Source: Promethearchaeia archaeon
Lineage (GTDB): Archaea; Asgardarchaeota; Lokiarchaeia; Sigyniarchaeales; SOKP01
Direction: 5' to 3'
DNA: 64,000 bases
Assembly: GCA_046483985.1 (NCBI GenBank)
Contig: JAWOCD010000085.1
Location: 8,957 to 72,956, forward strand
Shown here: positions 12,823 through 64,000 of the stretch, one piece after another
Numbering within the stretch: the first letter of the stretch is position 1
Layout of the letters: each line of letters begins with the position of its first letter
Program-made: the position numbers and the translations under genes
Notes under the pieces: generated by a model
What the model was told of the DNA's origin: nothing
The model's database searches: none
The model's input: the letters and a program-made list of their open reading frames with translations, nothing else

Positions 12823-13503
12823 ATGAAAATGGAATGGAACCAAGACAGATTTGACCAATTTATCATCGAACACCAGGTTATTGGGTTTTTTTCAGAATCG
12901 ATTACCTTAAAATCTGGGAGAGAATCGCATTGGTATGTCAATTGGCGAGATATTGCTGAAGATGTTTATCTGTTAGACAAATTATCTGATTTTGTCATAT
13001 CCTATATTCAGCACAAGGATTTTGATCCCGATTGTTTTTTTGGAGTTCCCGAAGGCGCAACCAAGTTAGGAATTCTCTGTCAGTATAAATGGGCAACCTC
13101 GAAAGCAGATTACCAAGAAGGGAGGTATGTATTAGCCATGGGAAGAGGTAAGCCAAAGGCACATGGAGAATTAAAGGATCAAAATTACTTGGGGATTCCC
13201 AGAGGGAAAATCGTAGTTATAGAAGATGTAACCACGACAGGAGGATCTATGTTTTCTACAGTTCAAAATTTATTGGAATTTGACATAAATATTATTGCTG
13301 CAGTCGGACTCACCAATCGAAATGAAATAAGAAGGGATGGAAAATCGGTCAAAGAATTATTCGATGATATTGGCATAGATTATTACGCAATGAGCAATGC
13401 TATTGACTTGTTACCCAAATTAAATCCCCAACAATCAATAGCTAAAAAGGTTCAAGCTTATTTTGAACAATACGGGACAGAGGGAATTGATTTTCATCTC
13501 TAA
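12823..13503 (+). CDS. type I phosphoribosyltransferase, orotate phosphoribosyltransferase-like
   Basis: PRPP-binding motif KIVVIEDVTTTGGS, an upstream LKSGRESHWYVNWRD and a GRGKPKAHG loop give the same layout as PyrE. Substrate assignment is not certain. Confidence 0.6.
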   Translation: MKMEWNQDRFDQFIIEHQVIGFFSESITLKSGRESHWYVNWRDIAEDVYLLDKLSDFVISYIQHKDFDPDCFFGVPEGATKLGILCQYKWATSKADYQEGRYVLAMGRGKPKAHGELKDQNYLGIPRGKIVVIEDVTTTGGSMFSTVQNLLEFDINIIAAVGLTNRNEIRRDGKSVKELFDDIGIDYYAMSNAIDLLPKLNPQQSIAKKVQAYFEQYGTEGIDFHL

Positions 13504-13538
13504 CAAAGTTTTATTAATTTCCTAATTAAAATGTTATT

Positions 13539-17605: not shown

Positions 17606-17747
17606 TTCTTAAGTACACTTGGATAGTTTTAATAAATTAGATTAATTCTATAATATTAACTTTTATTATTAATCTGGAAATTAAAGCTTATAATTTTTGG
17701 AGATTATCTTGATTTTTGAAAGAGCCTATTTCCCACAAGATCTCAAT

Positions 17748-28810: not shown

Positions 28811-29803
28811 GTGAAAAGGATGAGAGCGGCAGTTTTTGAGGATGTTCGAAAAATTTCCTATGAAGAAGATTATCCCAAGCCAGAAATCACTCCCGACCAA
28901 GTGTTGGTCAAGGTCGCTTATTGTGCTATCTGTGGCACTGATGTGACTAATTATAAAAAGAAATTATATCAAACTCCAGTGGTGATGGGTCATGAATTTT
29001 CAGGTACCATTGATAAGATAGGAAAAAATGTGCAAGGATTTCAAGTAGGGGATAAAGTCGTGGGTATTAATGTTTTATTGGAGATTGGGCGTTCAGATTC
29101 TGGAGGGATGGGCATTTTCAAAGATGGAGGGTTTGCAGAATATGTGGCGGTTCATAAAAACGATTTGTTTCATGTTCCCTCGCCCAATTCGCTAAAAGAG
29201 TGTTCCATGATAGAATCATTTGCTGTCTCCGTCCGGGCATTCAAACGATGTAATATGTCTAAACATCAGAAGATTGTAATTATAGGCGGTGGAAATATAG
29301 GGCTAGGGGCACTTAATATTCTAAAGAACCAATATGATCCGGAATATGCAGTGGTGGTTGAAATCTATGAACCTTTAAGAAAAAAAGCGAAAGAATTGGG
29401 TGCAGATGATACTCTTCCTCCCAGCAAGGCGAAATTAAGGAGATATTTCAGAAAAAACGGAGAACCCGATTATATCCTTGATTGTGCGGGAAACGACAAG
29501 ACATTCGATCTGGCTATTAATACGATAAAAAGGGGGGGAACGATTGTGTTAGAAGGAATCTATAAAGGCAATGTCGAATTCCCTCTATTTTTAATGAATA
29601 ATAAGGAAATCACGCTTATTGGCACTTTATCTCATGACCGAGAAGACGTACAAGATACAATTGATCTCTTTACTAGTGGAAATGTTCAACCTGCCAAATT
29701 AATCTCTGATGTTATTCCTTTATCCGAAATACAAGAAGAAGGGTTCGAGCGCTATATGACTGATCAAGAAAGAGATTTTATCAAAATATTAGTGGAAATC
29801 TAA
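28811..29803 (+). CDS. zinc-dependent medium-chain alcohol/polyol dehydrogenase
   Basis: CAICGTDV and GHEFSGTI zinc-ligand motifs and a Rossmann IIGGGNIG. The start is GTG at 28811 or ATG at 28820. Confidence 0.8.
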   Translation: MKRMRAAVFEDVRKISYEEDYPKPEITPDQVLVKVAYCAICGTDVTNYKKKLYQTPVVMGHEFSGTIDKIGKNVQGFQVGDKVVGINVLLEIGRSDSGGMGIFKDGGFAEYVAVHKNDLFHVPSPNSLKECSMIESFAVSVRAFKRCNMSKHQKIVIIGGGNIGLGALNILKNQYDPEYAVVVEIYEPLRKKAKELGADDTLPPSKAKLRRYFRKNGEPDYILDCAGNDKTFDLAINTIKRGGTIVLEGIYKGNVEFPLFLMNNKEITLIGTLSHDREDVQDTIDLFTSGNVQPAKLISDVIPLSEIQEEGFERYMTDQERDFIKILVEI

Positions 29804-30390
29804 ATTTTTTCAGATCTTTCAATTACCTTTTTGCTCATCAATCTAAATGCAGTTTCTACATTATTTCCTGTCTTTGCGGAAGTAATTATTGTTTCCAAAG
29901 CGTTGATTTCCTCACCTAAAGAATCCAATTTCTCTTGGTTTACCTTTCTGGGGAGATCTGCCTTATTTCCAACTAAAATGAGGGGAATTTCATCATTACA
30001 GTGTTCCATCAAATCGGGAAACCAGAATGTTTCTATCTCTTCAAACGTCTTTTCTCGAGTAAGGTCCCCGATAATTAATGCACCTTGAGCCCCACCATAG
30101 TAAAGATGTCTAGTTTTCTTCCACCGTTCGTGCCCAGCAATATCCCATAATTGAATATCTACATGGTGATCTTTATCCTTTTCAACGGGGATGTCCATAT
30201 TTCCTAATTCTAATTTTTTCACATACATATTGACCCCGATGCTTGCTCTATAATCATTCAGAAAATGTCCCGAAACGAAACGTTCGGCTAAACTGGTTTT
30301 TCCAACGCCCGGTTCACCAGTTATAACAACCTTAAACACCCAATATCGTTCAGAAATTGTTCTATTTTCACTTTTCAAGATTTCATTCAC
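29800..30390 (-). CDS. Ras-superfamily small GTPase, Rab-like
   Basis: G1 GEPGVGKTS, G3 WDIAGHERW (compare Rab WDTAGQERF), G4 GNKADL, G5 TSAKTG. No C-terminal Cys lipidation motif. Confidence 0.85.
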   Translation of the reverse strand: MNEILKSENRTISERYWVFKVVITGEPGVGKTSLAERFVSGHFLNDYRASIGVNMYVKKLELGNMDIPVEKDKDHHVDIQLWDIAGHERWKKTRHLYYGGAQGALIIGDLTREKTFEEIETFWFPDLMEHCNDEIPLILVGNKADLPRKVNQEKLDSLGEEINALETIITSAKTGNNVETAFRLMSKKVIERSEKI

Positions 30391-31852: not shown

Positions 31853-32950
31853 ATGTCGGACGAGAATGAAAAAAAAGAAGATAAAGATGATGATCTTGAT
31901 TTAGATTTTGACTTACCGGATTTGGGCTTAGAAGATGAGGAGGAACCATCAATGCCTCCACCGACCGAAGCTCCCCCCTCACCGGCACCGACAGAACCAT
32001 CAGCACCGACAGAACCATCAGCACCGACAGAACCATCAACTATGAAAGCACCAGAACCCACCTCTTCATCCCCTTCCCCTGAATCCACACCCTCGCCCAC
32101 ACCAACTACCGAATCTATGTCCGCACCACCTTCGCCTACACCCTCAACCGAACCAGAATCAACTGCTCCCTCTCAAAATGAATTGGATAATATGCAACAA
32201 CAAGTAAGCGCGAAGGACCAAAAGATAAATGAACTTCAAAACAAAATAAATGAATTGAACAACCAACTGAGTCAAGCAAGCGGAGAAACATCCAACCTTC
32301 AATCCCAATTGACCCAAAAGGAGAACCAGATCAACCAACTGAATAATGAATTGCAAAATACAAAAAATTCGATGCAACAGTTACAATCGCAAGTTAATCA
32401 ATTACAATCCGAAAAAGAACAACTCCAAGATCAAATTCCGAACTTGCAACAGCAAATACAACAGCTACAGCAAGAGAAAGCTAATTTGCAAGGTCAGATC
32501 CAACCTCTCCAACAAAAAATACAGCAATTGGAGCAAGATGTTGCGTATAAGGATAAACGTATCAAAGAATTGAAGGAACCAAAGGCAGTTATGGGCTCGT
32601 CTCTCTCTCAAGAACAACCAAGCTCTCCAGGAGCTTCTCAAAGCAGTAGTTCATTTGGAAGCTCCTCTTCCAGCGTAATGGGGGGCGGCGGACAAACAGG
32701 AACATCTGGCACTACTGGAGGCGGTACGGGAGGCGGTACGGGAGGCGGTACGGGAGGCACTACTGGAGGCGGTACGGAACAGACTCCCTCGGTGGACGTA
32801 GGAGGCACTCGAACAAAGTGTCCAAATTGTGGAGCAACCGGTCAAGCCATTAAGGAAGTTGAAGATAAAAGTAAAGTCATCAGCTATATCCCCAAACCAA
32901 TTTATGCCAAGAAGTATGTGTGCACTAAGTGTGGATATGAATTCTCATAA
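31853..32950 (+). CDS. hypothetical modular protein: acidic N-terminus, P/T/S-rich repeats, Q/N-rich coiled coil, G/T-rich repeats, C-terminal zinc ribbon
   Basis: 365-aa ORF. The heptad-like NELQNKINELNNQLSQ...QIQQLQQEKANLQGQIQPLQQKIQQLEQD region precedes a C-terminal CPNCG...CTKCG. It contains two perfect in-frame tandem repeats. Confidence 0.55.
   Translation: MSDENEKKEDKDDDLDLDFDLPDLGLEDEEEPSMPPPTEAPPSPAPTEPSAPTEPSAPTEPSTMKAPEPTSSSPSPESTPSPTPTTESMSAPPSPTPSTEPESTAPSQNELDNMQQQVSAKDQKINELQNKINELNNQLSQASGETSNLQSQLTQKENQINQLNNELQNTKNSMQQLQSQVNQLQSEKEQLQDQIPNLQQQIQQLQQEKANLQGQIQPLQQKIQQLEQDVAYKDKRIKELKEPKAVMGSSLSQEQPSSPGASQSSSSFGSSSSSVMGGGGQTGTSGTTGGGTGGGTGGGTGGTTGGGTEQTPSVDVGGTRTKCPNCGATGQAIKEVEDKSKVISYIPKPIYAKKYVCTKCGYEFS
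31985..32038 (+). repeat. perfect 18-bp x3 tandem repeat (GCACCGACAGAACCATCA), in frame (APTEPS)
   Basis: Read directly from the sequence. Confidence 0.95.
32717..32752 (+). repeat. perfect 12-bp x3 tandem repeat (GGAGGCGGTACG), in frame (GGGT)
   Basis: Read directly from the sequence. A related ACTACTGGAGGCGGTACGG occurs at both flanks. Confidence 0.9.
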
Positions 32951-33216: not shown

Positions 33217-36200
33217 ATGTCGTTAGAGAGAGAACTCTTAGAGCCGCAAATTAACAAAAAACGTGCTGCTGCCGTTTTTTTAATTGCTATCCTCTTAATC
33301 GCTTTTTTTTCACTCTCTACTGTATTATTCAACTTTTTATTGGGTTCACAACGTATAAATCCCAATGAAAAGCTTGATGATGCGGATTTTGAGGATGTTA
33401 CCTTAAATATGCCCGACATTCCCTTTGATCTGGAAGATCTTATTGATGCGTTGGATCCGGAAGATTTGGAAGATTTAGACCTAACTGAAGAGGATATCGA
33501 TGAACTCTTCCAAGAAATGTACGATGGCGATATCGATAATATGGACTTAAGCACGATGGGAGCAGCAATGGCAGCTCTCCTCGGGTCCGATGAGGAGGTA
33601 TTTCGAATTTTTGATTACGACAATTTTGACAATTTGTCCGATAAGCTCTGGCGCTATGAATGTTTTGAAGAGTATAACGGAACCAGCTGGAAATCTTCGG
33701 CAAGTAAACAAATATTCGATTTTTATTCGTATGGGGATTTAGAGGGAAGCGAAGACATTTTGAGGTTAAAGAGGGCCATGAATCCCTCATCAGATCAGAA
33801 CTCATTTGTGGCTCCCGCTCTTTTTCCGAATCCTAATATTATGGAAGGGAGCGTGAGCGGAGATACCTTGGATGAGAGTTCTGCAACACTTTACAAGGAT
33901 GATTATAATTGCACCACCATGGATGCAACCTTTACCAGCGATCAAGAAACCAATATGTCGTATGAATTATTTGGAACGCCCCAACCCAGCCCCGAAGATT
34001 TAAATTCGAGCCAAGTTGACGAGTCCTTTACTCCATCCGCAATTAGAGACCTCTATTTACAACTCCCGCCCTCAATCTCCACTTACAGGGCCAATCATGA
34101 TGACTTTGACAGGCATTGCGACAACTTAGAGGTCATCATTAAGGAAGACGATGGGGCATATACAGTCGCAAATAAGATACGGAACTATTTGCAAGCGAAT
34201 TTTACCGATCCCTACAGTGGAGGAGCAGAGATTTATACGGATGATGGCCCCGCAGAAGGAGAGGATGAAATAGAATGGTTCTGTGAAAAGGAGGGGGGGT
34301 TATGGTCTCATTTCGCTTCAGCTTTTACTGCATTTACCCGGGTATTCGGTGTTTCTAGCAGATATGTTAACGGATTTAATAGTCGGGCCCTCGATGAGGT
34401 CTCTGACCCTCAAGAAGGAGAAGATGCGGCGGTGGTCCGATATAAAAATTTGTATAATTGGGCAGAAATCTATGTTCCTACAGATACCTCTGGAAATGGA
34501 CGTTGGGTGGAGATGGATATTAATTTCGAGACCTTTGGAAGTGGAGGAATGACCGCGCCAGAAGGGGAATATAATATTACGCTTACTTCTAATGTTACTG
34601 GACCGATAAATCGTGGAAATATTGCAGAACTGAATGCCTCACTGAGTTCAGATACGGGAGATGTAGAGGATAAGGAAATAAAGTTCTATGATCATAATAA
34701 TCCTGAGACACCATTAGGTTCTGCAATTACTAATGCCAATGGAAATGCCACTCTACTCGTTGATATTAATGATACACAAGTTGTGGGCCCTCATAATATT
34801 TATGCTACTTATTACACCTCCTATTCAAATCCGATAACTTATTTAATTAACGATGATATTGTCGTTCATTTATCCAGGGTTAATCCGCAAGAAGTTAATA
34901 GATCGGATTCTAATCCCGATGAGACAACTATTAAAGGTAATGTCTATGATCCTGCAAATAATGAAGGGGTGCGGGATGCTGATATTGAATATGTATTGTT
35001 AGAAAAAGGAACCAATAACAAATATAATAGTGCATTTACTCCAAATTGCTCACAAACAAATAGCACGGGAGATTTTGAAGATACTATTTCTGTTAATGCC
35101 CCACCAGCAGCACCTTATGGAACATTTGATATAAGAGTTGATTTTAATGGAACGTGGAATGATGGTCTTTATGTATCTGAGCTCATGGAAAATTCCAGTA
35201 ATCGCATCGAGTTTAATCATACGAGTACTCATAGTGTTAACTTTTACATAAACAACACTGATTCAACCAATTATGAAAATCCCACGGTAAATAGAACCGA
35301 TTCGTTACATTTAAAAGCGAAAGTCGTTGCTTCCGATGGTTCGACAATTCCAGATAAGGATGTGCAATTTATTAATGCCGATAACAATTCTACACTTTTC
35401 ACAAATACTACAAATGCTGATGGACTTGCCACCTATACCTTTGATTTAAATTCCTCTGTTTTGGCGGGTCCAAACTTACTCTGTGCTCAAGTGGGATATG
35501 TCACCAATTATTCCTATTTTGTTTTGGAAGAGAAACCAACCATTCATATAAATTCTGGACCAACTCCCAGAGAGATAAATAGAACAGGTTCAGGAATTAA
35601 AGAATTTTCTATTCCTGGCAGCATTAATGATACTAATGGCAATCCAATTCCATATGCCGAAATTGGATTGAGGATATTTAGAAATTCAACAGATTTCTCC
35701 GAGTATTTAAGTCCCCCTGATCCTCCCAAGGTTAATTCTGACGGAAAATTTAATTTTACCTACGGAGTTTCTGAAAATATTCCATACGGAAATTATACAT
35801 TACGGATGGACTTTAACGGCACAGTGGATCGGTCAGACGATTCAGATTATCCTCATTATTTTGAATTGTCCGAGATGGATAACTCAACCATTCTTACAGA
35901 TGAGTTAAAGGTTGAGGCACCTGATGAGTTCACAATGGATTTTTTCATTGATGGATACAGCAATGATGATTTTTATTCGCCTAATATTACCCGAAATGAT
36001 GAAGTAAACTTATCGGTTGAAATCCAATGGGGTATGGATCTTGCAAAGGACGGAGATATCGTTACCTTCAGGGACCATACTCAAGATCTCGTTATCGCCG
36101 AGAAAGAACTTAGTAACGGTCAAGCGAGTGTTAGTTATGAAATGAATGATACTATTGTGGCAGGACCCCACCTTATTTCCGCAAGCTATGATAGAGCTGG

Positions 36201-37686
36201 AGCTGGAGAAAAAAATCATTCTTATTTCATTTTGGATGCTCCTATTGATATTGACCTGGATTTTGTCCCGCAAACAATTAATAGTACCGGGAACATCGGT
36301 AGGAATTTTGTTGTTCGCGGTTCTTTGAAAGATCCTTCAAACAGTAAATCTGTTAAATATGGGCAAATTTCAGTCCATATGCTTGATGGTAATGACGACG
36401 TTTCTTTCTATCTCAATCAAGAAGCGGGGGATTTGGCTCTAAATGAGACAGGGGAGATTTATGCCGAATTTAGCGTTAGCGAGAGTACACCTCCAAAAAA
36501 TTATACAATAGAGACTCGTTTTAACGGCACCTTTTTGTACACCAATTCTGAAGAAGATTACCAATATGATTATTTCTTGCCCGAATGGAGCAATTTCTCG
36601 GCGGCGAACGAAAGTGAAAATGAACTAGAAGTAATTAACCCTGAAGAATTATCTATTACATTTAAAATCGGAGGAGAACATACAAGACCAACCTATGATA
36701 ATAGTAATCCACCTGCAACATATCAAAAAGGAGAGAATGCCACCTTTGAGGTCTGGGTCAATCATACGACAACGGATGAAGGAACTGTCCGGCTTATGGA
36801 CAATTACACCGGAACTGAATTGGATTCTGCCGAAGTTAATATAACTGAGGGGGGATATCATGAATTTAGTATAAATACCACCGATTTGCACGCTGGATTA
36901 CATAGAATAATTGTTACTTATGAGGATTTCAACACGATTAATGATACATATATAGTAATAAACGAGAGTGTAGATATCTCCAGTGAACTAAGTGTGGAAA
37001 AAGTAAGGAGAAATCAAAATGGATTTTCGGTAGAGGGAAATGTCACCGATGAGGGTGAACCCTTAAGAGCCTTAAATCTTAGCATTAATTTCTATGATTC
37101 CTCAATGCAAGATGCTTCGGATTATTTCAATTTAGAAGGATCTTCGTCCATAATAGTTCAAGAAGATGGGACATATTGTTTTAATATCAGCTACGTGGAT
37201 CTGGAGGCTCCTCAAGGGCAGTATTATGTGCAGATTAATTTCACGGGCGATATAATTGAATTACCGGATGTTCATCTCACCGATTATATGGTCCATAGCA
37301 ACAGTAGTTGTATGACCTTGAATGTAACGGCGGGTACTACTATTACCGAAGGAGATTCTTATACTTTAAATGAAAAAGAAGAAAAATGGTATAATGATGA
37401 TATTCTATACGTTACCGGTAATTTAACGTGGGATAACGGAAGCGCAATGGAAGGGTATAATGTGAATGTGACCATAGAGGATGAAAACGGAAACGTTATA
37501 GCATTCAATGATACGGTGACCGTCGATTCCAGCGGCTTTTTCAACGGCTCGCTTACTGTTGACTCGAATTGGCCAACCTATCAAGAAGATACAAGTATTA
37601 AGGTCGAGTTTAATCCCTTTGATGAGCATAATTTTGACATGACAGATGGTTATTATGTTGAAGGTTCTAGTCAAGAATATACTTAA
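33217..37686 (+). CDS. large N-terminally anchored surface protein with transglutaminase-like core (Cys and His positions substituted) and many Ig-like/sequon-rich repeats
   Basis: N-terminal TM (AAVFLIAILLIAFFSLSTVLFNFLL). TGase-like core EKEGGLWSHFASAFTAFTRVFGVSSRYVNGF...YNWAEIYVP...GRWVEMD. More than 1000 aa of repetitive beta-rich sequence follow, with dozens of N-x-S/T sequons. Confidence 0.7.
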   Translation: MSLERELLEPQINKKRAAAVFLIAILLIAFFSLSTVLFNFLLGSQRINPNEKLDDADFEDVTLNMPDIPFDLEDLIDALDPEDLEDLDLTEEDIDELFQEMYDGDIDNMDLSTMGAAMAALLGSDEEVFRIFDYDNFDNLSDKLWRYECFEEYNGTSWKSSASKQIFDFYSYGDLEGSEDILRLKRAMNPSSDQNSFVAPALFPNPNIMEGSVSGDTLDESSATLYKDDYNCTTMDATFTSDQETNMSYELFGTPQPSPEDLNSSQVDESFTPSAIRDLYLQLPPSISTYRANHDDFDRHCDNLEVIIKEDDGAYTVANKIRNYLQANFTDPYSGGAEIYTDDGPAEGEDEIEWFCEKEGGLWSHFASAFTAFTRVFGVSSRYVNGFNSRALDEVSDPQEGEDAAVVRYKNLYNWAEIYVPTDTSGNGRWVEMDINFETFGSGGMTAPEGEYNITLTSNVTGPINRGNIAELNASLSSDTGDVEDKEIKFYDHNNPETPLGSAITNANGNATLLVDINDTQVVGPHNIYATYYTSYSNPITYLINDDIVVHLSRVNPQEVNRSDSNPDETTIKGNVYDPANNEGVRDADIEYVLLEKGTNNKYNSAFTPNCSQTNSTGDFEDTISVNAPPAAPYGTFDIRVDFNGTWNDGLYVSELMENSSNRIEFNHTSTHSVNFYINNTDSTNYENPTVNRTDSLHLKAKVVASDGSTIPDKDVQFINADNNSTLFTNTTNADGLATYTFDLNSSVLAGPNLLCAQVGYVTNYSYFVLEEKPTIHINSGPTPREINRTGSGIKEFSIPGSINDTNGNPIPYAEIGLRIFRNSTDFSEYLSPPDPPKVNSDGKFNFTYGVSENIPYGNYTLRMDFNGTVDRSDDSDYPHYFELSEMDNSTILTDELKVEAPDEFTMDFFIDGYSNDDFYSPNITRNDEVNLSVEIQWGMDLAKDGDIVTFRDHTQDLVIAEKELSNGQASVSYEMNDTIVAGPHLISASYDRAGAGEKNHSYFILDAPIDIDLDFVPQTINSTGNIGRNFVVRGSLKDPSNSKSVKYGQISVHMLDGNDDVSFYLNQEAGDLALNETGEIYAEFSVSESTPPKNYTIETRFNGTFLYTNSEEDYQYDYFLPEWSNFSAANESENELEVINPEELSITFKIGGEHTRPTYDNSNPPATYQKGENATFEVWVNHTTTDEGTVRLMDNYTGTELDSAEVNITEGGYHEFSINTTDLHAGLHRIIVTYEDFNTINDTYIVINESVDISSELSVEKVRRNQNGFSVEGNVTDEGEPLRALNLSINFYDSSMQDASDYFNLEGSSSIIVQEDGTYCFNISYVDLEAPQGQYYVQINFTGDIIELPDVHLTDYMVHSNSSCMTLNVTAGTTITEGDSYTLNEKEEKWYNDDILYVTGNLTWDNGSAMEGYNVNVTIEDENGNVIAFNDTVTVDSSGFFNGSLTVDSNWPTYQEDTSIKVEFNPFDEHNFDMTDGYYVEGSSQEYT

Positions 37687-55378: not shown

Positions 55379-55456
55379 ACTTTAATTTTTTTAAGTTTAA
55401 CTCTCTTCTAATACTATCTATTTTATAAATTCGACTTATCTTATTTGATATCATCC

Positions 55457-56065
55457 ATGTCGCCTATGAAGTTATCAGAAAAAATGAAATTCTTTAACAT
55501 TGGCCGTTATAAAGAGGAACGGGATACGTTTTATGAATGGAAAAGCAAAAATTTTAATAAATCCATCTCCTTTATCGTGCACTCCACGCGGAGTGCTCCA
55601 GAAAGAGATATCTTTTATACCATAAACAAAAAAGATTATAAAGCCGTTTATTATATTCCAGAAGATATTGATGCGGTATTTACGATAGGTGCGGACCCAG
55701 ATATTCAATCCGTCATTTTAGAAGCACTCTTAGAATATCTCCATAATAAGTTTTTCGAAATGTATGAAGGTTCTCTCCTTACGGCATGTTATGGAGAAAG
55801 ATGCGATATTTTTAACGGGTTTACGGATGTGCTCCTTGACTCGTTTAGGAATTTTAGAGAATTAGATTTGGTAAAAGCGACCAGGGTTAATTGCAAGGCG
55901 TGTAAAAAGAACATGCAAGTGTATATAAAAAAATCCTTAATTGAGAATGCCTCACAATTTCCGGTTCCTATCGTCTTTGTTCATTCCGGACACGCGCTCT
56001 TAATATATATAGATAGGCAGTACAAGACTCGAGGAACGGGGCTGGTTTCTCTTTCTTATAAATAA
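55457..56065 (+). CDS. hypothetical protein, paralogue A (longin-like pattern plus conserved C-terminal beta-rich module)
   Basis: Aligns by eye with the next gene: AVFTIGADPDIQSVILEALLEYLHNKF versus LVFTLGAESSIQFQILEALLEYLKEKF. The ATG at 55457 is preferred; the ORF-track start at 55445 is TTG. Confidence 0.55.
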   Translation: MSPMKLSEKMKFFNIGRYKEERDTFYEWKSKNFNKSISFIVHSTRSAPERDIFYTINKKDYKAVYYIPEDIDAVFTIGADPDIQSVILEALLEYLHNKFFEMYEGSLLTACYGERCDIFNGFTDVLLDSFRNFRELDLVKATRVNCKACKKNMQVYIKKSLIENASQFPVPIVFVHSGHALLIYIDRQYKTRGTGLVSLSYK

Positions 56066-56174
56066 GATTAATGATCATCAGGATAAATTCTCCATTTTCT
56101 TGTATTTCTCTTATCCATAAAAACTTTAAAAATATCGGTAGTTAATCTTTAATAAAAGTATTTTATCTATAGCT

Positions 56175-56774
56175 ATGGTTAGTTCCTTAATAGAGAATTT
56201 GAACTCAAAGGTATATTTTTTCCAAGTCACTAAAGGGGGAAACCAACTTTTTACCTGGAAATCTAGATTTATTAAGAAGGCATTTTTTAATACGGGATTC
56301 TTTAACAAGACTATTACGAATTATGATTTATTCCATCATCTAAATAAAGGAGATATTAAAATGGTCGGGATCAAGTCACGCCCTAATTTAGTTTTTACCT
56401 TGGGCGCAGAGAGTTCTATTCAATTTCAAATTTTAGAAGCATTATTAGAATACTTGAAGGAGAAGTTCACTAAAAAATATGCAGATATAATTTCTCTTGA
56501 ATTTGGGGCGAGTTCAGCGAAGCCCTTCGCTGAATTTGAAGAGGTGATTCTAAACTCACTGGAGGAATTCGAAGAATTAGACCTTATCAAAGTCATTGAT
56601 GTATACGTGGACTTTTTAAGAAAAAGACTAAAAATTGCAGTAAAGCGTTCTCTAATACAAGATGCCGAAGGAAATGTGCCCTTTGTGTTCTATTATAAAG
56701 GAATTTCTATTCTTCTTTATCTTGATCATGAATACCATGTGAGAGGATTAGAAAAGGTAAGTTTTTCCAATTAG
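56175..56774 (+). CDS. hypothetical protein, paralogue B of the 55457 gene
   Basis: Shared motifs ELDLIKV and VPFVFYYKGISILLYLDHEYHVRG, versus VPIVFVHSGHALLIYIDRQYKTRG in paralogue A. Confidence 0.55.
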   Translation: MVSSLIENLNSKVYFFQVTKGGNQLFTWKSRFIKKAFFNTGFFNKTITNYDLFHHLNKGDIKMVGIKSRPNLVFTLGAESSIQFQILEALLEYLKEKFTKKYADIISLEFGASSAKPFAEFEEVILNSLEEFEELDLIKVIDVYVDFLRKRLKIAVKRSLIQDAEGNVPFVFYYKGISILLYLDHEYHVRGLEKVSFSN

Positions 56775-56870
56775 AAAAGACATAACCTAAATGCTTTTAA
56801 ATTTGAAAAATTTACTTTAATATGTTTATTTTTCAAATATCATCATCTATAACAAATAAACTACAAAGAT

Positions 56871-57734
56871 ATGACAATTTATAATATTCAAGTCATTTCG
56901 AGCACGGGTTATCCTTACTTCAACAAAAATATTAAGGAAGAACCTGAAGACATTAAGTTATTTTTGAGATTTTTCGATTTTACGGAAAAAGCAGAAAGTT
57001 TTCCCCCCAGTTTAGATGATGATTCAAATTTTTCGTTATTGGCAGGACTTGTTTCTGCTTTATTTGAATTCGCAAAAAACATTAATAAAAACATCAATAC
57101 CTTGTCATTTAAGTCCTTACATCGTCCAAAGGGAAGACCAAAAATAGAGAAAAAATATCAAGGTGATTGTCTTATTACTACACAAACAGAAACCTATCTT
57201 CTCCATAAAAGTATACGCCAGAAAATAAATTACATTTACAAAGCAATCGTTTCTTCTAAGATTCCGTTTGAATCTGCTGACCCGCTTACGGAAAAAGAAC
57301 AAAAAACCATCGTCGATATATTAACAGATGAAAAAGCGAGAAATCATTTAAAACAAAATACCGGGAAAATAAAAGATATCGCCGAAAAATTATTGCGTGA
57401 ACGGGGAGATTATGGATTAGAATCGATTGCGATAACCTCATTTGATCTTACCCCCCTTCGGGTGTATGGAAGTAAGTATTCTTCTGAAGATATTGAAAAT
57501 ATTTTAAGGAATATTGGTGAAATTCCGCAAATTGATCCGTTCGAGTGGAAATATCGTCAATCCTTTTTGAACAATTCTCAAGTATGGATCTATCTTATTA
57601 ATTCAGGAATCGGAGTGACGGTTGAGGAAACTCTTTTTGAACCATATTTTTATTTGCTCTTCTGTGATCCCCAATCATACTTAGGAGAATTTCCCAATAA
57701 ATTAACACGAGATTTAAATTCAATTCTCGGATAA
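56871..57734 (+). CDS. hypothetical protein with longin/roadblock-like N-terminal pattern
   Basis: 287-aa ORF. MTIYNIQVISSTGYPYF...FSLLAGLVSALFEFAKNI resembles the start of longin-type domains. The C-terminal part (VWIYLINSGIGVTVEE...FYLLFCDPQSYLGEFPNKL) may be a second such domain. Confidence 0.5.
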   Translation: MTIYNIQVISSTGYPYFNKNIKEEPEDIKLFLRFFDFTEKAESFPPSLDDDSNFSLLAGLVSALFEFAKNINKNINTLSFKSLHRPKGRPKIEKKYQGDCLITTQTETYLLHKSIRQKINYIYKAIVSSKIPFESADPLTEKEQKTIVDILTDEKARNHLKQNTGKIKDIAEKLLRERGDYGLESIAITSFDLTPLRVYGSKYSSEDIENILRNIGEIPQIDPFEWKYRQSFLNNSQVWIYLINSGIGVTVEETLFEPYFYLLFCDPQSYLGEFPNKLTRDLNSILG

Positions 57735-57809
57735 GCCGATATCAGTTTTTCTCTTTATTAGGAGAGAATGTGCATTATCTTTATTTAATTGGAATGCTTA
57801 TTGAGTAAT

Positions 57810-58364
57810 ATGACGGAATTTAAAAAGTTAGCAAGTACGAATCATACTGGATTATTGCATCCCAGACAAACGATTTTATGCACCGTGAAACATAAGAATA
57901 AGACAAACATTATCACACTCGCTTGGACAATGATTATCAGTCGAAAACCGCCGATCATTGCCATCTCCGTTGCACCACAGCGATATTCTCATAATTTAAT
58001 CAAGAATTCGAAGCAATTCACCATAAATATTCCCACAAAAGAAATAATCTCCGATATATTCTATTGTGGAAGTCACTCTGGAGACCGTGTGGATAAATTT
58101 AAGGAAACTAATCTCACGGCGCTCGAAGGGCTCTCGGTGGATTGTCCTCGAATAAAAGAGTGTATTGCCCATCTCGAATGTAAGGTCATTGATGCGAATG
58201 AGTACGGTGATCATACCCTTTTCATAGGTAAAGTCATAACATGTACTGGGCGGAGTGATGTCTTAAAAAATGGGAAAACAGACATCTCAAAACTTGAGAT
58301 CCCTTACCACCTGACTGGAAAGAGATTTACATTTAATCAAAAGAATATTTTCAGAGTAGAATAA
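57810..58364 (+). CDS. flavin reductase-like (FMN-binding split-barrel) domain protein
   Basis: The pattern PRQTILCTVKHKNKTNIITLAWTMIISRKPPIIAISVAPQRYSHNLIKNSKQFTINIP with a later GDHTLFIGKV is typical of the flavin reductase domain family. The ATG at 57810 is preferred over the TTG at 57789. Confidence 0.7.
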   Translation: MTEFKKLASTNHTGLLHPRQTILCTVKHKNKTNIITLAWTMIISRKPPIIAISVAPQRYSHNLIKNSKQFTINIPTKEIISDIFYCGSHSGDRVDKFKETNLTALEGLSVDCPRIKECIAHLECKVIDANEYGDHTLFIGKVITCTGRSDVLKNGKTDISKLEIPYHLTGKRFTFNQKNIFRVE

Positions 58365-58414
58365 CAATCAGTACGAAATTTAAAAAATAAAATAAAATAA
58401 AATTTTTTAATTAC

Positions 58415-59215
58415 TTATTTGTAAAATTCCGAAGCCTTTTTGACAATTGGAATAAATGTTTCAGCCGAAATTGACGCTGTTCCGATCAGCCCCCCGTCTA
58501 TATCTTCCAAGGGAAGTAAATCGCCGCAATTTGCTGGTTTCATAGATCCTCCATATTGGATCTGGATGTTATTTGCCTCTTCCTGACCAAACTCTTCTTT
58601 AAACCAGTTTCGCACGAGGGCGTGTGCTTCTTTCGCCTCATCGGCTGTTGCTGCTTTAATTTCCACTCCAGGATTAAGATATTCATTGTTAATTGCCCAG
58701 ACTGGCTCATAGGCAATAATGATATCATTTAATTGCTCTACTGACACACCCGCTAAACATTCTTTAAGTTGAGAGGTATTAATTTCTTCTAATTTTCCCT
58801 CTTGTCGTTCTCTTGCGGATTCGCCGATACAGAGCACCACTTTTAGCCCTTTTTCCAAAGCTTTCAATACTTTTTTATTAATATATTCATTATCCTCTCC
58901 GAATATTCTTCTCCTTTCGCTGTGTCCTAAGATGACATATTCACATCCCGCTTCAAGAAGAGCATCTGGTGAAATCTCTCCCGTGAAAGCACCTTTGTCC
59001 CGAAAGTACATATTTTGGCCGGCCAGTTTTAATTTAGTATCATCTATTGCTTGTCCTACTGGATATAATGCATTAAAGGAAGGACCAATAAAGACATCTA
59101 CCCCAGATAAATCAATATCCTCTAGCTCTGAAGCAATTGCCTTAGCAATTTCTACAGAATCCTTAACCTTGGGAACTTTTAATTTCCAATTACCACCAAT
59201 AGCAAATTTTCTCAT
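58415..59215 (-). CDS. tpiA: triosephosphate isomerase (bacterial/eukaryotic-type length and motifs)
   Basis: GGNWKLK, GHSERR, AYEPVWAI, YGGS and GGLIGTAS motifs. 266 aa. Confidence 0.85.
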   Translation of the reverse strand: MRKFAIGGNWKLKVPKVKDSVEIAKAIASELEDIDLSGVDVFIGPSFNALYPVGQAIDDTKLKLAGQNMYFRDKGAFTGEISPDALLEAGCEYVILGHSERRRIFGEDNEYINKKVLKALEKGLKVVLCIGESARERQEGKLEEINTSQLKECLAGVSVEQLNDIIIAYEPVWAINNEYLNPGVEIKAATADEAKEAHALVRNWFKEEFGQEEANNIQIQYGGSMKPANCGDLLPLEDIDGGLIGTASISAETFIPIVKKASEFYK

Positions 59216-59357
59216 TTCTAAACACTCGATTTAACCTTATTAATCTATATATTAATTCTGGATATTCTAGATAGTATTACTCTATATTTATTATTGATAT
59301 TTAGATTCAAGGAAGTTATAAGAGATAAAAATGAGAGTAACTAAATAAAGAAAAAAA

Positions 59358-59870
59358 TTATTCTTCCTCGTTCTCTTCAGGCAATTTTTCGGTCAAATCT
59401 GTGGCTTCTAATAACTTCTGAACCTCCTCTAAATCTGGATCCATCACTTCTGGTAAACTAAATTTCTTTCTCCTCCGTTCGATTGCAGATTGTAAAGGAA
59501 TGGCCAAACCAGATTCTAAAATCACTGAGGCTTGCTTCGTATAATGCTCCGGAGCTTCTCCCCGTTGGACACTTTCATTTTTAAGTAATGTAAAGATATC
59601 TGTTAGATTCACTTTTTGTGGGCAGACCTCATCGCAAGTATCGCAAATGGTGCAGCCCCAAATGTTAAATGACTCTTTCCTTCCGAAAATTTTATCTTTC
59701 AACCCTAATAATGAGTCTAAAATTAACCGTCTTGGATTATAGCGCCCTTCCGTGACTTGCGCAACTGGGCACGCCCCGCTGCACGTGGCGCATTGATAAC
59801 AATAGGATAACGTTGATCCAATGTCTGAACCCACGATAGAATTACGGAATTTGAAATCTATAGTTGCCAT
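59358..59870 (-). CDS. HdrC-like 4Fe-4S dicluster protein
   Basis: CYQCATCSGACP and CTICDTCDEVCP motifs with an NPRRL spacer region, as in heterodisulfide reductase subunit C. No HdrA or HdrB gene lies nearby. Confidence 0.7.
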   Translation of the reverse strand: MATIDFKFRNSIVGSDIGSTLSYCYQCATCSGACPVAQVTEGRYNPRRLILDSLLGLKDKIFGRKESFNIWGCTICDTCDEVCPQKVNLTDIFTLLKNESVQRGEAPEHYTKQASVILESGLAIPLQSAIERRRKKFSLPEVMDPDLEEVQKLLEATDLTEKLPEENEEE

Positions 59871-60004
59871 TTATTATATCAATTTATAATGTAAATTTTA
59901 GTATACTTTAATTAAAAATTTATCATATTAAAAATCTATTTTTTTAAAAAACACTTCCTAAGAAGCTAAAATTTATTTAATATTTGCGAAATTTATATAT
60001 AAGG

Positions 60005-60202
60005 ATGCTGGATGTGGAGATTTCAAAGTTAAAGAAATTCATAAAATCCCGCCAAGATGAATTACAAATCCCCGGAATCGGTTTAGGCATAATTAAAAAT
60101 AAAGAAATCGTGTTCAGCGGAGGATTTGGGTTTCGGAATATGAGATTCCATTTGATCCACACCTCTATTTCCTGTAAAATCCTGAATCATATCTCTACTT
60201 AA
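60005..60202 (+). pseudogene. remnant of a beta-lactamase/serine-hydrolase-family gene (N-terminal ~45 codons, frameshifted, remainder missing)
   Basis: LKKFIKSRQDELQIPGIGLGIIKNKEIVFSGGFGFRN matches the usual N-terminus of class C beta-lactamase-like hydrolases. After GFGFRN the expected continuation (YEIPFDPH...) is readable only in another frame and stops quickly. No downstream coding sequence follows. Confidence 0.5.
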
Positions 60203-60549
60203 TATTCATATTATAAAAACTGAAGGAAAAGAACAATTGATTTTATAAATTGAGAAGCATATAATCAATAATTATAGATTTTTTTCTCGTCACTCATTCT
60301 TTCTAAAATTTCTAATATAAAAACATTCAATGAATTCCCTTTCAATTCTTTAATTTGAGTCAGAAACAACACCACTACTTTAAAGAATTTCTAATCCTTA
60401 TTGTTCTGAAGAGCAGTTCATAACTTTTATAATAAAGCTTTAAACAATATAAAGGATTAAATAATTTTAAATATATAAATCAAGAAAATAATTGTGAGAG
60501 ATTTAAAGATCTGAAAAAATTATTATCAAGTAATGAGTTGAAATCTAAA

Positions 60550-60903
60550 ATGCATATTAGTGAATTAGAAGAAGTAAACGTTGAAGCCCCCCCTGAGGCT
60601 GAAGAAGGAATCTATGTAGTGGATATATATACCAATTGGTGCGGACCTTGTAAATTCGTTAGTCCACTGTTAATGAAACTCCGCGATGAGGGTCTTATCT
60701 CCTTGACAAAAGTGGATTTAGACCAAAATAGACCGCTTGGAGAAAAGTTTGGAGTAACTGCTATACCAACTCTTCTGTTCTTCAAAAATGGAGAACTCAT
60801 CGATAAAACGATTTCAGTAGACGGAAGGGACTTTATCCAAAATGGAAAAATGGTGGGTGCGGCACCAGAGGACGTATTAAGAAAGATAATTGATAAAATT
60901 TAA
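60550..60903 (+). CDS. trxA: thioredoxin
   Basis: WCGPCK active site and the GVTAIPTLLFFKNGE motif. The ATG at 60550 is preferred over the TTG at 60538. Confidence 0.85.
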   Translation: MHISELEEVNVEAPPEAEEGIYVVDIYTNWCGPCKFVSPLLMKLRDEGLISLTKVDLDQNRPLGEKFGVTAIPTLLFFKNGELIDKTISVDGRDFIQNGKMVGAAPEDVLRKIIDKI

Positions 60904-61045
60904 ACTTTTATACAGTTCAATATTGTTTTTTGTTTCTTTTTCTTTTTAATAGAAAATATTTTCTATTGTATGTTAGATATTAAAAATTTTAAAATGAATG
61001 CTATTTTTACATTTATAATTTAACTACTCTTAGGTTTAAAGGAAA

Positions 61046-61552
61046 ATGTCAAATTACTCGAGAAAGGACTTACTTGACGCTGATGCTACAATGAATCAGC
61101 TTAGAAATATGGTGACCCACCTTCAGAGATTTATGAAAAAAAGCGGGGTTGAAAATATAATTGAACGCTATAGAAGGATGGGGAAACAGATGGCTGACAC
61201 CTATATTAACTATTGGAAGCCCATTGATAGCGTAAAACTTGCAAACATTCGAGATGTAATCGCTACGATTTATAAAAAAATTGTAGGCAGCCAGATTAAT
61301 ATTTCGATCAATGAAAAAGAGCATTTGATCACTGTAGTTGACTCAAATTGCTCTTTATGTAAATACCAATTTGATGATATAAACGTTGCTGGTTGCGAGA
61401 TCATCTTGGCTTTAGTCAGCGAGATGATTAACTTAATTAACAAAAATTCTCCCGATTCTTCAAGACTACGTTTAGAACCTTTCGCGGTAAAAGAATCACG
61501 AACATTTGGAGATGATTCCTGTGTTCAAATATATAAATATAAAATTGAATAA
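61046..61552 (+). CDS. V4R-domain (Bet3/TRAPP-like) protein
   Basis: 168 aa. C-terminal NCSLCKYQFDDINVAGCEIILALVSEMINL...VKESRTFGDDSCVQIY fits the V4R pattern (Cys pair, G/A-rich helix, E...GD..C). Confidence 0.55.
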   Translation: MSNYSRKDLLDADATMNQLRNMVTHLQRFMKKSGVENIIERYRRMGKQMADTYINYWKPIDSVKLANIRDVIATIYKKIVGSQINISINEKEHLITVVDSNCSLCKYQFDDINVAGCEIILALVSEMINLINKNSPDSSRLRLEPFAVKESRTFGDDSCVQIYKYKIE

Positions 61553-63013
61553 TTGAGATTAGGTGAATATAATTTGGGACTATTTCAATGGTTATTAAAA
61601 AAAGTGACGAAAGCATTTGGGAGAGATACGGACGCATTATTTTATACCTTACTATATAGAGAGATTCTCAAGGAAATTCAAGAAATCACTCAAGACGAAG
61701 AGAAATCATTAATTGTAATGCGGGAGTTGGGGAAAAATGCGGCTTATGATTCATGTGATAGGCATTCGAGTATTTTTCGGATCATGCCAGGAAAGCCGGA
61801 TAAAGTTTTAGACTACTTTGGTATCCTTTGGAGTGTTGTATTTGGGATGGATTTTGCAGAGCATAATTATGAACGCATCCCCAATGACGGACATGTCTAT
61901 GATGATTACGTGCTTAATATTCAGAAAAATCCGATTTGTGCGAGCTATAGTAATGATAAAGAAGACACATTTGATTTTAAGAGGGTCCCCGATGATCAAG
62001 ATGGATGTAGTGCGGGTTTATGCGGAATGCTGGAGACCGTTGCTAATTTTATCTTGAAAGTAAAGAAAGCAGAATACCGGATCGGTATGCAAGAAACCAA
62101 ATGCCTGGCAAAAGGCGATGACGTGTTGCAGCTTTATTGTAAAATTTATAATCTTGAGGAATGGAAGCAATACATCGAAAAAGAAGGACAAAAAGATATC
62201 TTCTCCGAGGATTTTCTTGAGCAAGGCGAACCAGATTTACTTGATAAAGTTCAAGATCTCTTTTCATTGGATAAAATGGAGCAAATTCTGGAAGAGCCCT
62301 TGGAGAATGTCAAAGATAAGGTGGCAGATCTTATCCGAGAGAAGTTAAATATGGGACCTAGGCACTTCTTTGATTATTTCAGAAACTACGAAGATGACAT
62401 GATTCGCATTGTTGGGTTTTTGTTTGTTCATTTACTGAATGAATACGGGGGATTTGTAGAAAAGTTTCTGAAGAACGATGTCCTGGCGCGATTAGCTGGA
62501 TATTTATTCAAGCATATGAAGGAAATGACTCTTCTATTTATTCCGTTAGATGTTGTCCACGATTACCATGAATTATTTGTTAGTTTTCTCAAAGGATTGG
62601 CTCCAGAAGAGATGATTCAAAGAATTGAGAGCTTTTCCGCACAAGAAGATATTAATCTATTATTTGAAGGCGCACAGATCGCCCTCGAAGATTTGGGAAT
62701 AGACTTTTCAGAATTGAAAGATAATATTTGGGAAGAATTGAAGGAGGACCGTGAAGATGAATTGATCTCTTCGGATCAATCTGTTATTGATAAATCCCGT
62801 GAAAGATTTCCGAAAATTGTTAATATTCTTCAAGAAATCGTGATGTTGATTAGTGAAATCTTAACGCTTCCCGTGCGAACTCTAATATCTGGAAGCCATC
62901 ATTCAGTTAAATCGGCGGTTAATTCTGTAGTATCCGAAGAGGAGGGATTATACGGACAAATTAGAGATCGAGCGGATAATATCTTTGACGAAGTGGAAGA
63001 ACTTCAGGATTAA
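61553..63013 (+). CDS. protein with N-terminal V4R-like domain and acidic helical C-terminal extension
   Basis: It starts (TTG) immediately after the upstream stop. NPICASY...DGCSAGLCGMLETVANFIL...MQETKCLAKGDDVLQLYCKIY fits the V4R pattern. The C-terminal ~280 aa are E/D-rich helices. Confidence 0.5.
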   Translation: MRLGEYNLGLFQWLLKKVTKAFGRDTDALFYTLLYREILKEIQEITQDEEKSLIVMRELGKNAAYDSCDRHSSIFRIMPGKPDKVLDYFGILWSVVFGMDFAEHNYERIPNDGHVYDDYVLNIQKNPICASYSNDKEDTFDFKRVPDDQDGCSAGLCGMLETVANFILKVKKAEYRIGMQETKCLAKGDDVLQLYCKIYNLEEWKQYIEKEGQKDIFSEDFLEQGEPDLLDKVQDLFSLDKMEQILEEPLENVKDKVADLIREKLNMGPRHFFDYFRNYEDDMIRIVGFLFVHLLNEYGGFVEKFLKNDVLARLAGYLFKHMKEMTLLFIPLDVVHDYHELFVSFLKGLAPEEMIQRIESFSAQEDINLLFEGAQIALEDLGIDFSELKDNIWEELKEDREDELISSDQSVIDKSRERFPKIVNILQEIVMLISEILTLPVRTLISGSHHSVKSAVNSVVSEEEGLYGQIRDRADNIFDEVEELQD

Positions 63014-63574: not shown

Positions 63575-64000
63575 TTAAAGTCCTCCTTGTTGCTTTAATT
63601 GCTCGATTTTATTACTGTACTCTGATACTTTTTTATGGTCTTGTAATTCATATGCTAAATCAACCATTGCATAAAAAAGGTTGATTGCCTCTGTGATCTC
63701 GTCATTCTTAATTAGCTCATTAACCTCTTGTTCTAATCCTTTTAATTTACTCCTTAGTTTGGTTTGCTGTTTTTTTACTTTTTTCTCAATTGTCTGGAGA
63801 TCAGCATTGAATTTATTTATCAGGACAGTTTCCACTTCTTGGACCAATTTATAAATTTCTAAGGGATTATCTTTGTCCCATTTTTCATAATGAGGGATTT
63901 TCCTGAGAAAATTCTCCTTTGATTCATACATTTGAAGTATCTCTTCTGGTAAAATAAATTCGGGTTTTTCTGGATAATTTTGAAAATCAATCTGGATTTC
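63575..64000 (-). CDS. hypothetical coiled-coil protein, possibly 5'-incomplete at window edge
   Basis: The reading frame stays open from the stop at 63575 through to base 64000. The ORF-track start at 63931 is the first Met, but upstream in-frame codons (EIQIDFQNYPEKPEFILPEEILQ) contain no stop. Confidence 0.4.
   Translation of the reverse strand, partial: EIQIDFQNYPEKPEFILPEEILQMYESKENFLRKIPHYEKWDKDNPLEIYKLVQEVETVLINKFNADLQTIEKKVKKQQTKLRSKLKGLEQEVNELIKNDEITEAINLFYAMVDLAYELQDHKKVSEYSNKIEQLKQQGGL

Follow-up and report, generated by a model that had tools for sequence, protein, structure and literature searches.

Five genes, here called p1 to p5, lie within 7.6 kb of one another in a 64-kb stretch (the window; 32-40% guanine plus cytosine) of a Promethearchaeia metagenome-assembled genome (Asgard, Lokiarchaeia-type), and the principal finding of this analysis is that the last two of them, p4 and p5, are a tightly coupled pair and the sole unit of the locus that is conserved across distant lineages. 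In eukaryotes the TRAPP core is built from Bet3/TRAPPC3, which forms heterodimers with Trs33 and Trs31, together with the longin subunits Bet5, Trs23 and Trs20, and acts as the guanine nucleotide exchange factor (GEF) of Rab1 and Rab11. An initial annotation of the window had seen in p1 to p5 three longin-like and two Bet3-like proteins that might form a dispersed module of the TRAPP type, in a genome that also encodes a Rab-like GTPase. The observation that both kinds of TRAPP building-block fold occur within 7.6 kb, in a genome with such a GTPase, holds; the module itself is not supported by the tests made. The reading we favour, and consider reasonably probable, is that the p4-p5 two-gene operon is a conserved functional unit, likely encoding a Bet3-type heterodimer, that the longin and roadblock genes upstream are independent of it, and that the GTPase is a chance neighbour.

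Conservation of the p4-p5 pair

Homologs of p4 were collected from 80 genomes, one per species, and p5 follows p4 directly at every one of these loci (80/80). When they were pooled with loci from metagenomes, which were found by a scan with the p4 alignment and are mostly of the same clade, to give 160 loci, p4 and p5 were adjacent at 116 of the 121 where adjacency was testable. Divided by p4 identity, these comprised 104 of 109 loci at 48% or more, 3 of 3 at 38-40% and 9 of 9 below 38%, i.e., 12 of 12 in the lineages below 40%. The median gap from the p4 stop to the p5 start is 2 nt. The distant relatives of p5 (25-41% identity) come from seven contigs of at least five lineages, and each contig for which DNA was available has a p4-family gene (hidden Markov model (HMM) E-values of 1e-34 to 1e-45) directly 5' of p5, with nothing else common to the neighbourhood of these contigs.

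In the window p5 is in the frame of p4, and its open reading frame (ORF) starts directly after the p4 TAA. The start codon is a TTG, at 61553 or 61574, and the alignment with orthologs, in which an ATG stands about 2 nt past the p4 stop, makes the TTG at 61574, which follows GGTGA, the more likely start. Stop-codon readthrough and gene fusion were also entertained for p4 and p5 and were rejected, since the stop is an ordinary TAA and the orthologs are separate genes with that ATG of their own.

The conservation of the other genes is of a different kind. At most of the 80 loci the gene order is leuS-(p1)-p3-tpiA-hdrC-trx-p4-p5, and where there was enough flanking sequence trx was present in 70/74, hdrC in 66/71, tpiA in 62/67, p3 in 52/55 and leuS in 47/51; the same holds for genes still farther upstream and for genes that follow p5 in these genomes and are missing from the window. 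The collinear region thus spans at least 20 kb, housekeeping genes included, in a clade in which p4 is 48-61% identical, and this region-wide collinearity among close relatives would account for the proximity of p3 to the pair. Among the pooled loci, p3 lies within 6 kb upstream in 68 of the 72 with p4 identity of at least 48%, in 0 of 1 at 38-40% and in 0 of 5 below 38%, and in the lineages below 40% no relative of either p3 or p1 was present within 6-10 kb of p4-p5 (0/6). Even among the 80 genomic loci, p1 is near p4 in only six, and the divergent members of its family sit elsewhere. With p3 linked in one clade only, amid a region that is collinear throughout, and GTPase-like ORFs at 1 of the 80 related genomic loci, the proposal of a TRAPP-like module found no support here.

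Folds of the paired proteins

None of p1 to p5 passes any curated Pfam or NCBIfam threshold, and single-sequence searches of Pfam, NCBIfam and the PDB returned nothing above cutoff. For p4, the profile of its family (40 members) matched the PDB entries 7yh2/7yh3, "TRAPPC3 from Thorarchaeota", with E-values of 4.4e-6 and 5.2e-5. Its AlphaFold2 (AF2) model (predicted local distance difference test (pLDDT) 89.8, predicted template-modelling score (pTM) 0.86) has, in helices (H) and strands (E), the elements H12-33, H38-54, H65-80, E84-89, E94-99, H117-133, E141-150 and E159-167, i.e., two N-terminal helices, further helices and a four-stranded sheet, which is the two-layer alpha/beta Bet3 fold. 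The best matches of the model in a Foldseek search of the PDB were TRAPPC3/Bet3 of Naegleria, Thorarchaeota, mouse, human, Drosophila and yeast TRAPP (E-values of 5e-7 to 1e-4, template-modelling (TM) scores of 0.6-0.77), and the first 19 matches were all TRAPPC3/Bet3/TPC6. At the sequence level the window p4 has no match to Pfam TRAPP (PF04051), and 16 of 40 relatives match it below threshold, the best with E=7.9e-4. The predicted structure thus strongly confirms that p4 is a TRAPPC3/Bet3-fold protein.

Four cysteines of p4 (C102, C105, C117 and C159) are invariant in the 40 relatives, a pattern that matches the Zn site of Thor-TRAPPC3 (PMC10933270), and in the distant lineages, where p4 is 30-43% identical, C101, C104 and C151 are invariant and C116 is nearly so. 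p4 is therefore a small protein with a putative Zn site.

The layout of p5 comprises a candidate TRAPPC3/V4R-like domain (residues ~1-205), an acidic linker (~206-224) and a helical module (~225-486). The N-terminal domain carries a CxxC-type cysteine pattern, and comparison with the p4 family by hhalign gave E=0.068 for the orthologous p5 sequences and E=0.0013 for a diverse alignment of p5 N-terminal domains, the latter over 101 columns in a single register that brings into line the R..G..A helix, the CxxC hairpin and the long helix. In seven controls the E-values were 0.05-0.58, and most of those alignments were short. V4R (PF02830) is the sole Pfam family that recurs among p5 relatives, in 4 of 31, with E-values of 0.03 or more and none reaching threshold; Pfam TRAPP appears below threshold in 1 of 36, and the window p5 itself has no curated family match, Pfam TRAPP included. 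Residues C129, C184 and C196 are invariant among the relatives. The first Cys of the CPIC motif seen in orthologs is replaced by Asn in the window p5 (residue 126), so the putative metal site of this particular protein may be incomplete. The alignment evidence suggests that residues ~1-205 are probably a second, divergent copy of the Bet3/TRAPPC3 fold.

The C-terminal helical module of p5 (~260-280 amino acids (aa)) was covered by no Bet3 or TRAPP match in the searches made. The module also occurs in two distant relatives (P0352/P0353, ~530 aa), where it stands behind a HAD hydrolase domain, and these fusions mark it as a separate, independent unit.

Taken together, p4 and p5 would most likely form a Bet3-type heterodimer. 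The proposal draws on two precedents, the solved Asgard TRAPPC3 (Thor-TRAPPC3), which makes homodimers by way of its two N-terminal helices (PMC10933270), and eukaryotic Bet3, which pairs with Trs33 and Trs31. The C-terminal module of p5, being separately mobile, would act as an adaptor to some partner.

The alternative that survives best, which we nevertheless think unlikely, is that p4 and p5 are ligand binders of the V4R type, taking up a small molecule or lipid, as has been proposed for Thor-TRAPPC3, to sense or transport a hydrophobic ligand, and that GTPases and the longin/roadblock neighbours are irrelevant to them. The four invariant cysteines of p4 speak for it, since in Thor-TRAPPC3 and in PoxR the Zn site that they match ties the sheet to helix D and gives rise to cavities (PMC10933270), as do the V4R matches among p5 relatives, a relative (P0050) annotated as "predicted hydrocarbon binding protein", the metabolic neighbours trx, hdrC and tpiA, and the fact that p4 also matched BcsD/AxCeSD (cellulose synthase) in Foldseek. 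Those last matches, however, ranked behind TRAPPC3/Bet3, and no bacterial V4R protein comes as close to the p4 structure as eukaryotic and Asgard TRAPPC3 do; ligand binding also leaves the long, conserved C-terminal module of p5 unexplained. It is, moreover, compatible with a p4-p5 heterodimer, and hence only partly a rival to it.

Longin and roadblock genes and the GTPase

The AF2 model of p3 (built from 119 sequences; pLDDT 82.2, pTM 0.78) has two domains. The C-terminal domain (residues 164-287, pLDDT of at least 90) runs H164-181, E183-189, E195-199, H205-213, E226-233, E236-251, E255-265 and H274-286, which is the element order of the roadblock fold as defined in PMC9012472, and on this model we are confident that it is a roadblock domain. 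The N-terminal domain (~1-130, pLDDT 56-80; E3-10, E15-20, E31-36, H50-70, E100-106 and H112-130) is interrupted by a disordered stretch at 71-99, with pLDDT below 50 at residues 81-96; it is compatible with a longin-like fold that is incomplete in the model, and we call it longin-like with less confidence. The sole Foldseek match of p3 below 1e-3 was 7q3d_C, a chain of the human CPLANE complex whose subunit identity is unconfirmed (E=5e-4, TM 0.19-0.24), followed by the MglB chain 6izw_C (E=5e-3, TMt 0.61). The matches to MglB as a whole (probability 0.96-1.0, E-values of 5e-3 to 9e-2, TMt 0.5-0.61) were the best to a single domain, and further matches included MglC, the TRAPP core chain 7b6d_E (ninth, E=0.046), C-terminal domains of Lokiarchaeota Rag proteins, GATOR1/Ragulator and the VAMP7 longin. 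As all of these belong to the longin/roadblock superfamily, the assignment of p3 to it is sound, and a specific reading of p3 as a TRAPP longin is not favoured by the model. Sequence searches gave no Pfam or PDB match for p3, and no match to Pfam PF03259 in p3 or 31 relatives.

The genes p1 and p2 are tandem paralogs, 34% identical over their full length (E=5e-33), whose family comprises 59 relatives, all of them from Promethearchaeota; hhalign found no relation between it and p3. Pfam Longin (PF13774) matched 10 of 51 family members (best 7e-4) and Fuz_longin_1 one of 51, all below cutoff, with p2 matching Longin over residues 57-121 at E=0.099. p1 has no PDB sequence match, and neither a sybindin nor a sedlin signature of Pfam was present in p1, p2, p3 or their relatives. 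In p1 the candidate longin-like N-terminal half is followed by a CxxC...HxGH module, a putative Zn-binding unit whose ligands C150, C153, H180 and H183 are nearly invariant in the family; they are kept in p1 and the rest of the family, and p2, the more divergent copy, has lost them. Two genomes have, directly 3' of p5, an ORF of ~170 aa (L057:2202-2723 and L069:2324-2824) that contains only this C-terminal module (CxxC...H..H / IDKxYxVRG; HMM E ~1e-9), which shows that the module occurs independently of the candidate longin half. The NCBI product for p2 (P0289) is only 137 aa long and begins at Met63, although the similarity to p1 spans all 199 aa. From these weak sequence matches, p1 and p2 may be called candidate longin-like proteins and no more firmly than that. 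The claim of three longin-like and two Bet3-like proteins in 7.6 kb has accordingly fared unevenly: it is strong for p4 as a Bet3 protein and for p3 at the level of the superfamily, moderate for p5 and there only for the N-terminal ~200 residues, and weak for p1 and p2.

Most related genomes carry, after p5, a convergent two-gene unit that encodes a Roadblock/LC7 protein of 123-130 aa (Pfam 7.3e-14) and a protein of 450-470 aa without a known domain. The window, which ends 987 bp past p5, holds no homolog of this roadblock gene; its own genes 3' of p5, a GNAT gene and a coiled-coil gene, are not kept downstream of p5 in related genomes.

The Rab-like GTPase was correctly recognised in the initial annotation (Pfam Ras 1.2e-38; best PDB sequence matches Rab25, Thorarchaeota Rab, Sec4, Rab14 and Rab11), as was its distance of about 25 kb from the longin and Bet3 genes, more exactly 25.1 kb to p1 and 30.7 kb to p4. 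It is the sole such ORF in the window. The protein ends ...SKKVIERSEKI and has no C-terminal Cys, which is needed in the motif for Rab geranylgeranylation (PMC10933270), and none of the 80 genomes has a counterpart of it within 10 kb of p4. In MK-D1, GTPase genes generally lie outside operons with roadblock, longin or TRAPPC3 genes (PMC10933270). Some Rab-like GTPase is to be expected by chance in one 64-kb window, and we regard this one as an unrelated, distant neighbour and dropped it from consideration. Also near it, at a distance of 1.5 kb, is a gene (31853-32950, +) for a 365-aa protein whose repetitive N-terminus is rich in Pro, Thr and Ser and which also has a long coiled coil rich in Gln and, at the C-terminus, the motif CxxC...CxxC.

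Longin and roadblock proteins typically serve small GTPases as dimeric platforms. Lokiarchaeal genomes are ~5 Mb in size. They are reported to encode ~41 longin and ~38 roadblock proteins (PMC10933270). The density is thus about one such gene per 65 kb, or ~0.15 per 10 kb, which puts the chance of one within 7.6 kb of p4-p5 at roughly 0.1, so that a single gene of this kind near the pair is only mildly unlikely. p3 and p1/p2 (the latter a candidate longin with the putative Zn-binding module) would, on the favoured reading, be independent members of the large Asgard longin/roadblock repertoire, which stand near p4-p5 since the whole chromosomal region is collinear among Lokiarchaeia-type genomes.

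Several points weigh against this reading of an independent p4-p5 pair. The heterodimer, most likely as we hold it to be, is argued by analogy, and homodimers were predicted for other Asgard TRAPPC3-like proteins (Tran et al. 2024, PMC10933270). Support for the fold of the p5 N-terminal domain is modest (the E=0.0013 above), and the window p5 is without the first Cys of CPIC. In the close clade (p4 identity of at least 48%) longin/roadblock genes are found on both sides of the pair, p3 upstream at the 68 of 72 loci given above and a Roadblock/LC7 gene within 9.5 kb downstream at 52 of 58; the latter is also present at 2 of 2 loci of a 39%-identity lineage in which the upstream synteny, p3 included, has been lost. 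Two further distant lineages have GTPase-roadblock fusion genes 1.7-4.3 kb 3' of p4-p5, and p3-p5 had the highest residual distance correlation of the 78 gene pairs compared. The strongest case that is left for a functional neighbourhood is the recurrence of roadblock genes close to the pair, an argument that is post hoc and partly confounded by collinearity; together with the fusions and the p3-p5 correlation, the flanking genes leave room for a real neighbourhood of this kind.

The correlation just mentioned came from a mirror-tree analysis, in which pairwise distance matrices were compared by partial-Mantel correlation with the housekeeping neighbours controlled. p3-p5 ranked first (0.70) and p4-p5 fifth (0.58), the roadblock gene and hdrC being in the same high-correlation group. 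Mirror-tree values were rejected as evidence of co-evolution, since values of 0.57-0.65 were also obtained for control pairs that are presumably unrelated, and since genes that evolve fast may have non-linear residuals in common.

If the neighbourhood were functional, one form of it would be a proto-TRAPP, in which p4 and p5 are the Bet3-type subunits, p3 and/or p1/p2 (in relatives, the downstream roadblock protein) form the longin platform, and the whole is the exchange factor of a Rab-, Arf- or Rag-like GTPase encoded elsewhere. We judge this improbable, somewhat more so than ligand binding. In its favour are the presence of both fold classes, the longin/roadblock genes that flank the pair in most related genomes against the low background density estimated above, the GTPase-roadblock fusions near it in two distant lineages and the rank of p3-p5 and p4-p5 among the distance correlations, and a Heimdall protein in which a longin is fused to TRAPPC3 has been reported (PMC10933270). 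The linkage is, however, confounded by the collinearity of the region and missing for p3 and p1 below 40% identity, no GTPase is linked to the pair in the clade (1/80), control pairs have similar mirror-tree values, and p3 is closer to MglB and to tri-longin proteins than to TRAPP longins.

A broader form, to which we give a little less credence again, would have the p4-p5 heterodimer, the flanking p3 and, in relatives, the downstream Roadblock/LC7 protein with its 450-470-aa partner assemble into a platform that in archaea serves an Arf-, Rag- or Rab-like GTPase, with the p5 C-terminal module (possibly BART-like) as the contact to it; in such a platform, a relative of the ancestor of the TRAPP and/or tri-longin GEF complexes would survive today.

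A further alternative, that residues ~254-358 of p5 are a BART-like domain of the ARL2BP family which binds the GTP form of an Arf/Arl-like GTPase, making p4-p5 an effector or co-regulator of the Asgard Arf family and not a Rab GEF, is very improbable: among 177,635 PDB sequences ARL2BP/BART was the top match of two p5 profiles (E=0.015 in one case, E=0.09 over 105 residues in the other), hhalign against two ARL2BP fragments gave P=0.0018 (controls 0.02-0.33), the motifs NEY..hvEK and F.D.hAp.EM align with correct spacing, and one distant clade has Arf/Rag-like GTPases 1.7-2.2 kb downstream, but all of these statistics are borderline, Pfam ARL2_Bind_BART matched none of 31 p5 relatives even at E<=10, and no report of Asgard BART-like domains was found in the literature searched, so that we treat the likeness as a lead only.

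The five ORFs are at the positions assigned to them in the initial annotation (Table 1), and p4, p3 and p1 are 100% identical to the NCBI entries R6U96_13055, R6U96_13025 and R6U96_13015, respectively. The annotation had also named four genes that separate the longin-like from the Bet3-like set, and Pfam and NCBIfam bear out their identities, e.g., tpiA as triose-phosphate isomerase with a TIGR00419 match of 1.5e-42 (NCBIfam) and the hdrC-like gene as one for an HdrC-like dicluster protein; they are outside any module.

Table 1. Positions of the five genes and of other features discussed; those in related genomes carry the handle of their locus.
Feature	Position	Strand	Description
p1	55445-56065	+	206 aa; alternative starts ATG 55457, ATG 55484
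p2	56175-56774	+	199 aa; tandem paralog of p1
p3	56871-57734	+	287 aa; two domains, longin-like (predicted) and roadblock
Intervening housekeeping genes	57789-60903		flavin reductase (+), tpiA (-), hdrC-like (-), thioredoxin (+); Pfam, NCBIfam
p4	61046-61552	+	168 aa; TRAPPC3/Bet3 fold (model); first gene of the conserved pair
p5	61553-63013	+	486 aa; second gene of the conserved pair
Coiled-coil protein	63575-63931	-	118 aa; weak Dynamin_M, Syntaxin_2 and Nsp1_C matches
Rab-like small GTPase	29800-30390	-	196 aa; Pfam Ras
Roadblock unit of relatives	L016:13461-13832 and L016:12003-13421	-	equivalents at L120:14523-14915, 13109-14458
GTPase-roadblock fusions of relatives	L081:13682-14593, L088:9359-10309, L083:15718-16710		Rag-like Arf/Gtr1_RagA 303-316 aa; Robl_LC7+Arf/Ras 330 aa

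Other genes of the window were recorded in passing. An MCM helicase gene (21299-24997, +; MCM 2e-86) is interrupted by an intein (Intein_splicing 2e-25) with a LAGLIDADG homing endonuclease (LAGLIDADG_3 1e-17). The gene at 17697-21143 (+) encodes a 1148-aa HEAT-repeat protein that matches Pfam Cnd1, TOG and Adaptin_N, the last at 3.5e-13, which passes the curated cutoff; it is possibly an adaptin- or solenoid-like eukaryotic-signature protein. A protein of 1183 aa (7540-11091, +) is unusually long for topoisomerase VI B; the transducer domain of that subunit is confined to residues 715-862, and a Rho_N-like segment comes after it. Lastly, the 1489-aa product of 33217-37686 (+), with a transglutaminase-like core and Big_3_5 and MG2 domains, is probably a surface protein.

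Comparison with known systems

Thor-TRAPPC3 is a Zn-binding homodimer in its solved structures (PDB 7YH2/7YH3), and models have been made of its homologs in MKD1 and Heimdall (Tran et al. 2024, PMC10933270). As the Asgard TRAPP building blocks are published, their occurrence in the window repeats what was already known; the possession by Asgard archaea of all core TRAPP folds is on record, and the question narrowed here is whether the parts ever work together. No description of p4-p5 as a universal gene pair, of how p5 is built or of the longin-plus-roadblock architecture of p3 was found in the literature searched. The locus offers a concrete target, namely a translationally coupled, widely conserved pair of two different Bet3-fold genes (the fold of p5 being probable) that stays together in Asgard lineages whose loci otherwise have almost nothing in common, with defined candidate partners in p3, in the downstream roadblock operon of relatives and in the C-terminal module of p5.

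p4 resembles the Asgard TRAPPC3 proteins in size (~160-170 aa), in its two-layer alpha/beta fold (TM 0.72-0.77; profile E=4.4e-6) and in the CxxC...C...C pattern. Its identity to them is only 13-17%, and where they are described as stand-alone homodimers, p4 always precedes the longer, paralog-like p5, a pairing not found in PMC10933270. The Heimdall longin-TRAPPC3 fusion (MBD3190748.1; Tran et al. 2024, PMC10933270), compared by description only, links in an Asgard archaeon the two kinds of domain whose association the initial annotation had proposed; it does so in one polypeptide of another class, whereas the genes of the window are separate and 3.3 kb apart.

With V4R proteins, e.g., the PoxR sensor domain, the pair would share the superfamily fold, the Zn site and the hydrophobic cavity, as well as the weak V4R matches of p5 relatives, but among the top 50 structural matches of p4 TRAPPC3 ranks above every V4R structure, and there is no regulatory or enzymatic domain of the sort typically attached in V4R proteins.

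p3 has its closest single-domain likeness in MglB, and its C-terminal domain has the roadblock order of elements found in the Roadblock/MglB and Ragulator proteins, a likeness joined in relatives by the Roadblock/LC7 gene 3' of p5. It differs from them by the added N-terminal longin-like domain and three linking helices, by the absence of a roadblock sequence signal and by having no adjacent MglA- or Rag-type GTPase in the clade. The tri-longin Rab GEF subunits (Fuzzy/Inturned of CPLANE, Mon1-Ccz1 and HPS1-HPS4), which pair as heterodimers and end in a third domain of the lamtor type, have a longin as LD1 and a roadblock as LD2 (PMC9012472), the same order as in p3, whose best whole-protein match was the CPLANE chain 7q3d_C (its subunit unconfirmed); p3 has two domains in place of three, the TM scores are 0.19-0.24, and there is no evident partner subunit unless it is p1/p2.

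Eukaryotic TRAPP differs from the locus in that no gene of the window passes the Pfam TRAPP, Sybindin or Sedlin threshold, p3 has a longin-like and a roadblock domain where TRAPP longins have one domain, p5 carries a long C-terminal module that no Bet3/TRAPP match covered, and no linked GTPase was found. The likenesses are that p4 matches the Bet3/TRAPPC3 chains of crystal and cryo-electron microscopy TRAPP structures and that two different genes of the Bet3 fold (putatively so for p5) stand side by side, with longin-superfamily genes near them, and recall the heterodimers of Bet3 paralogs. If the p4-p5 heterodimer is true, then the pairing of Bet3 paralogs, a hallmark of eukaryotic TRAPP, would predate the eukaryotes.

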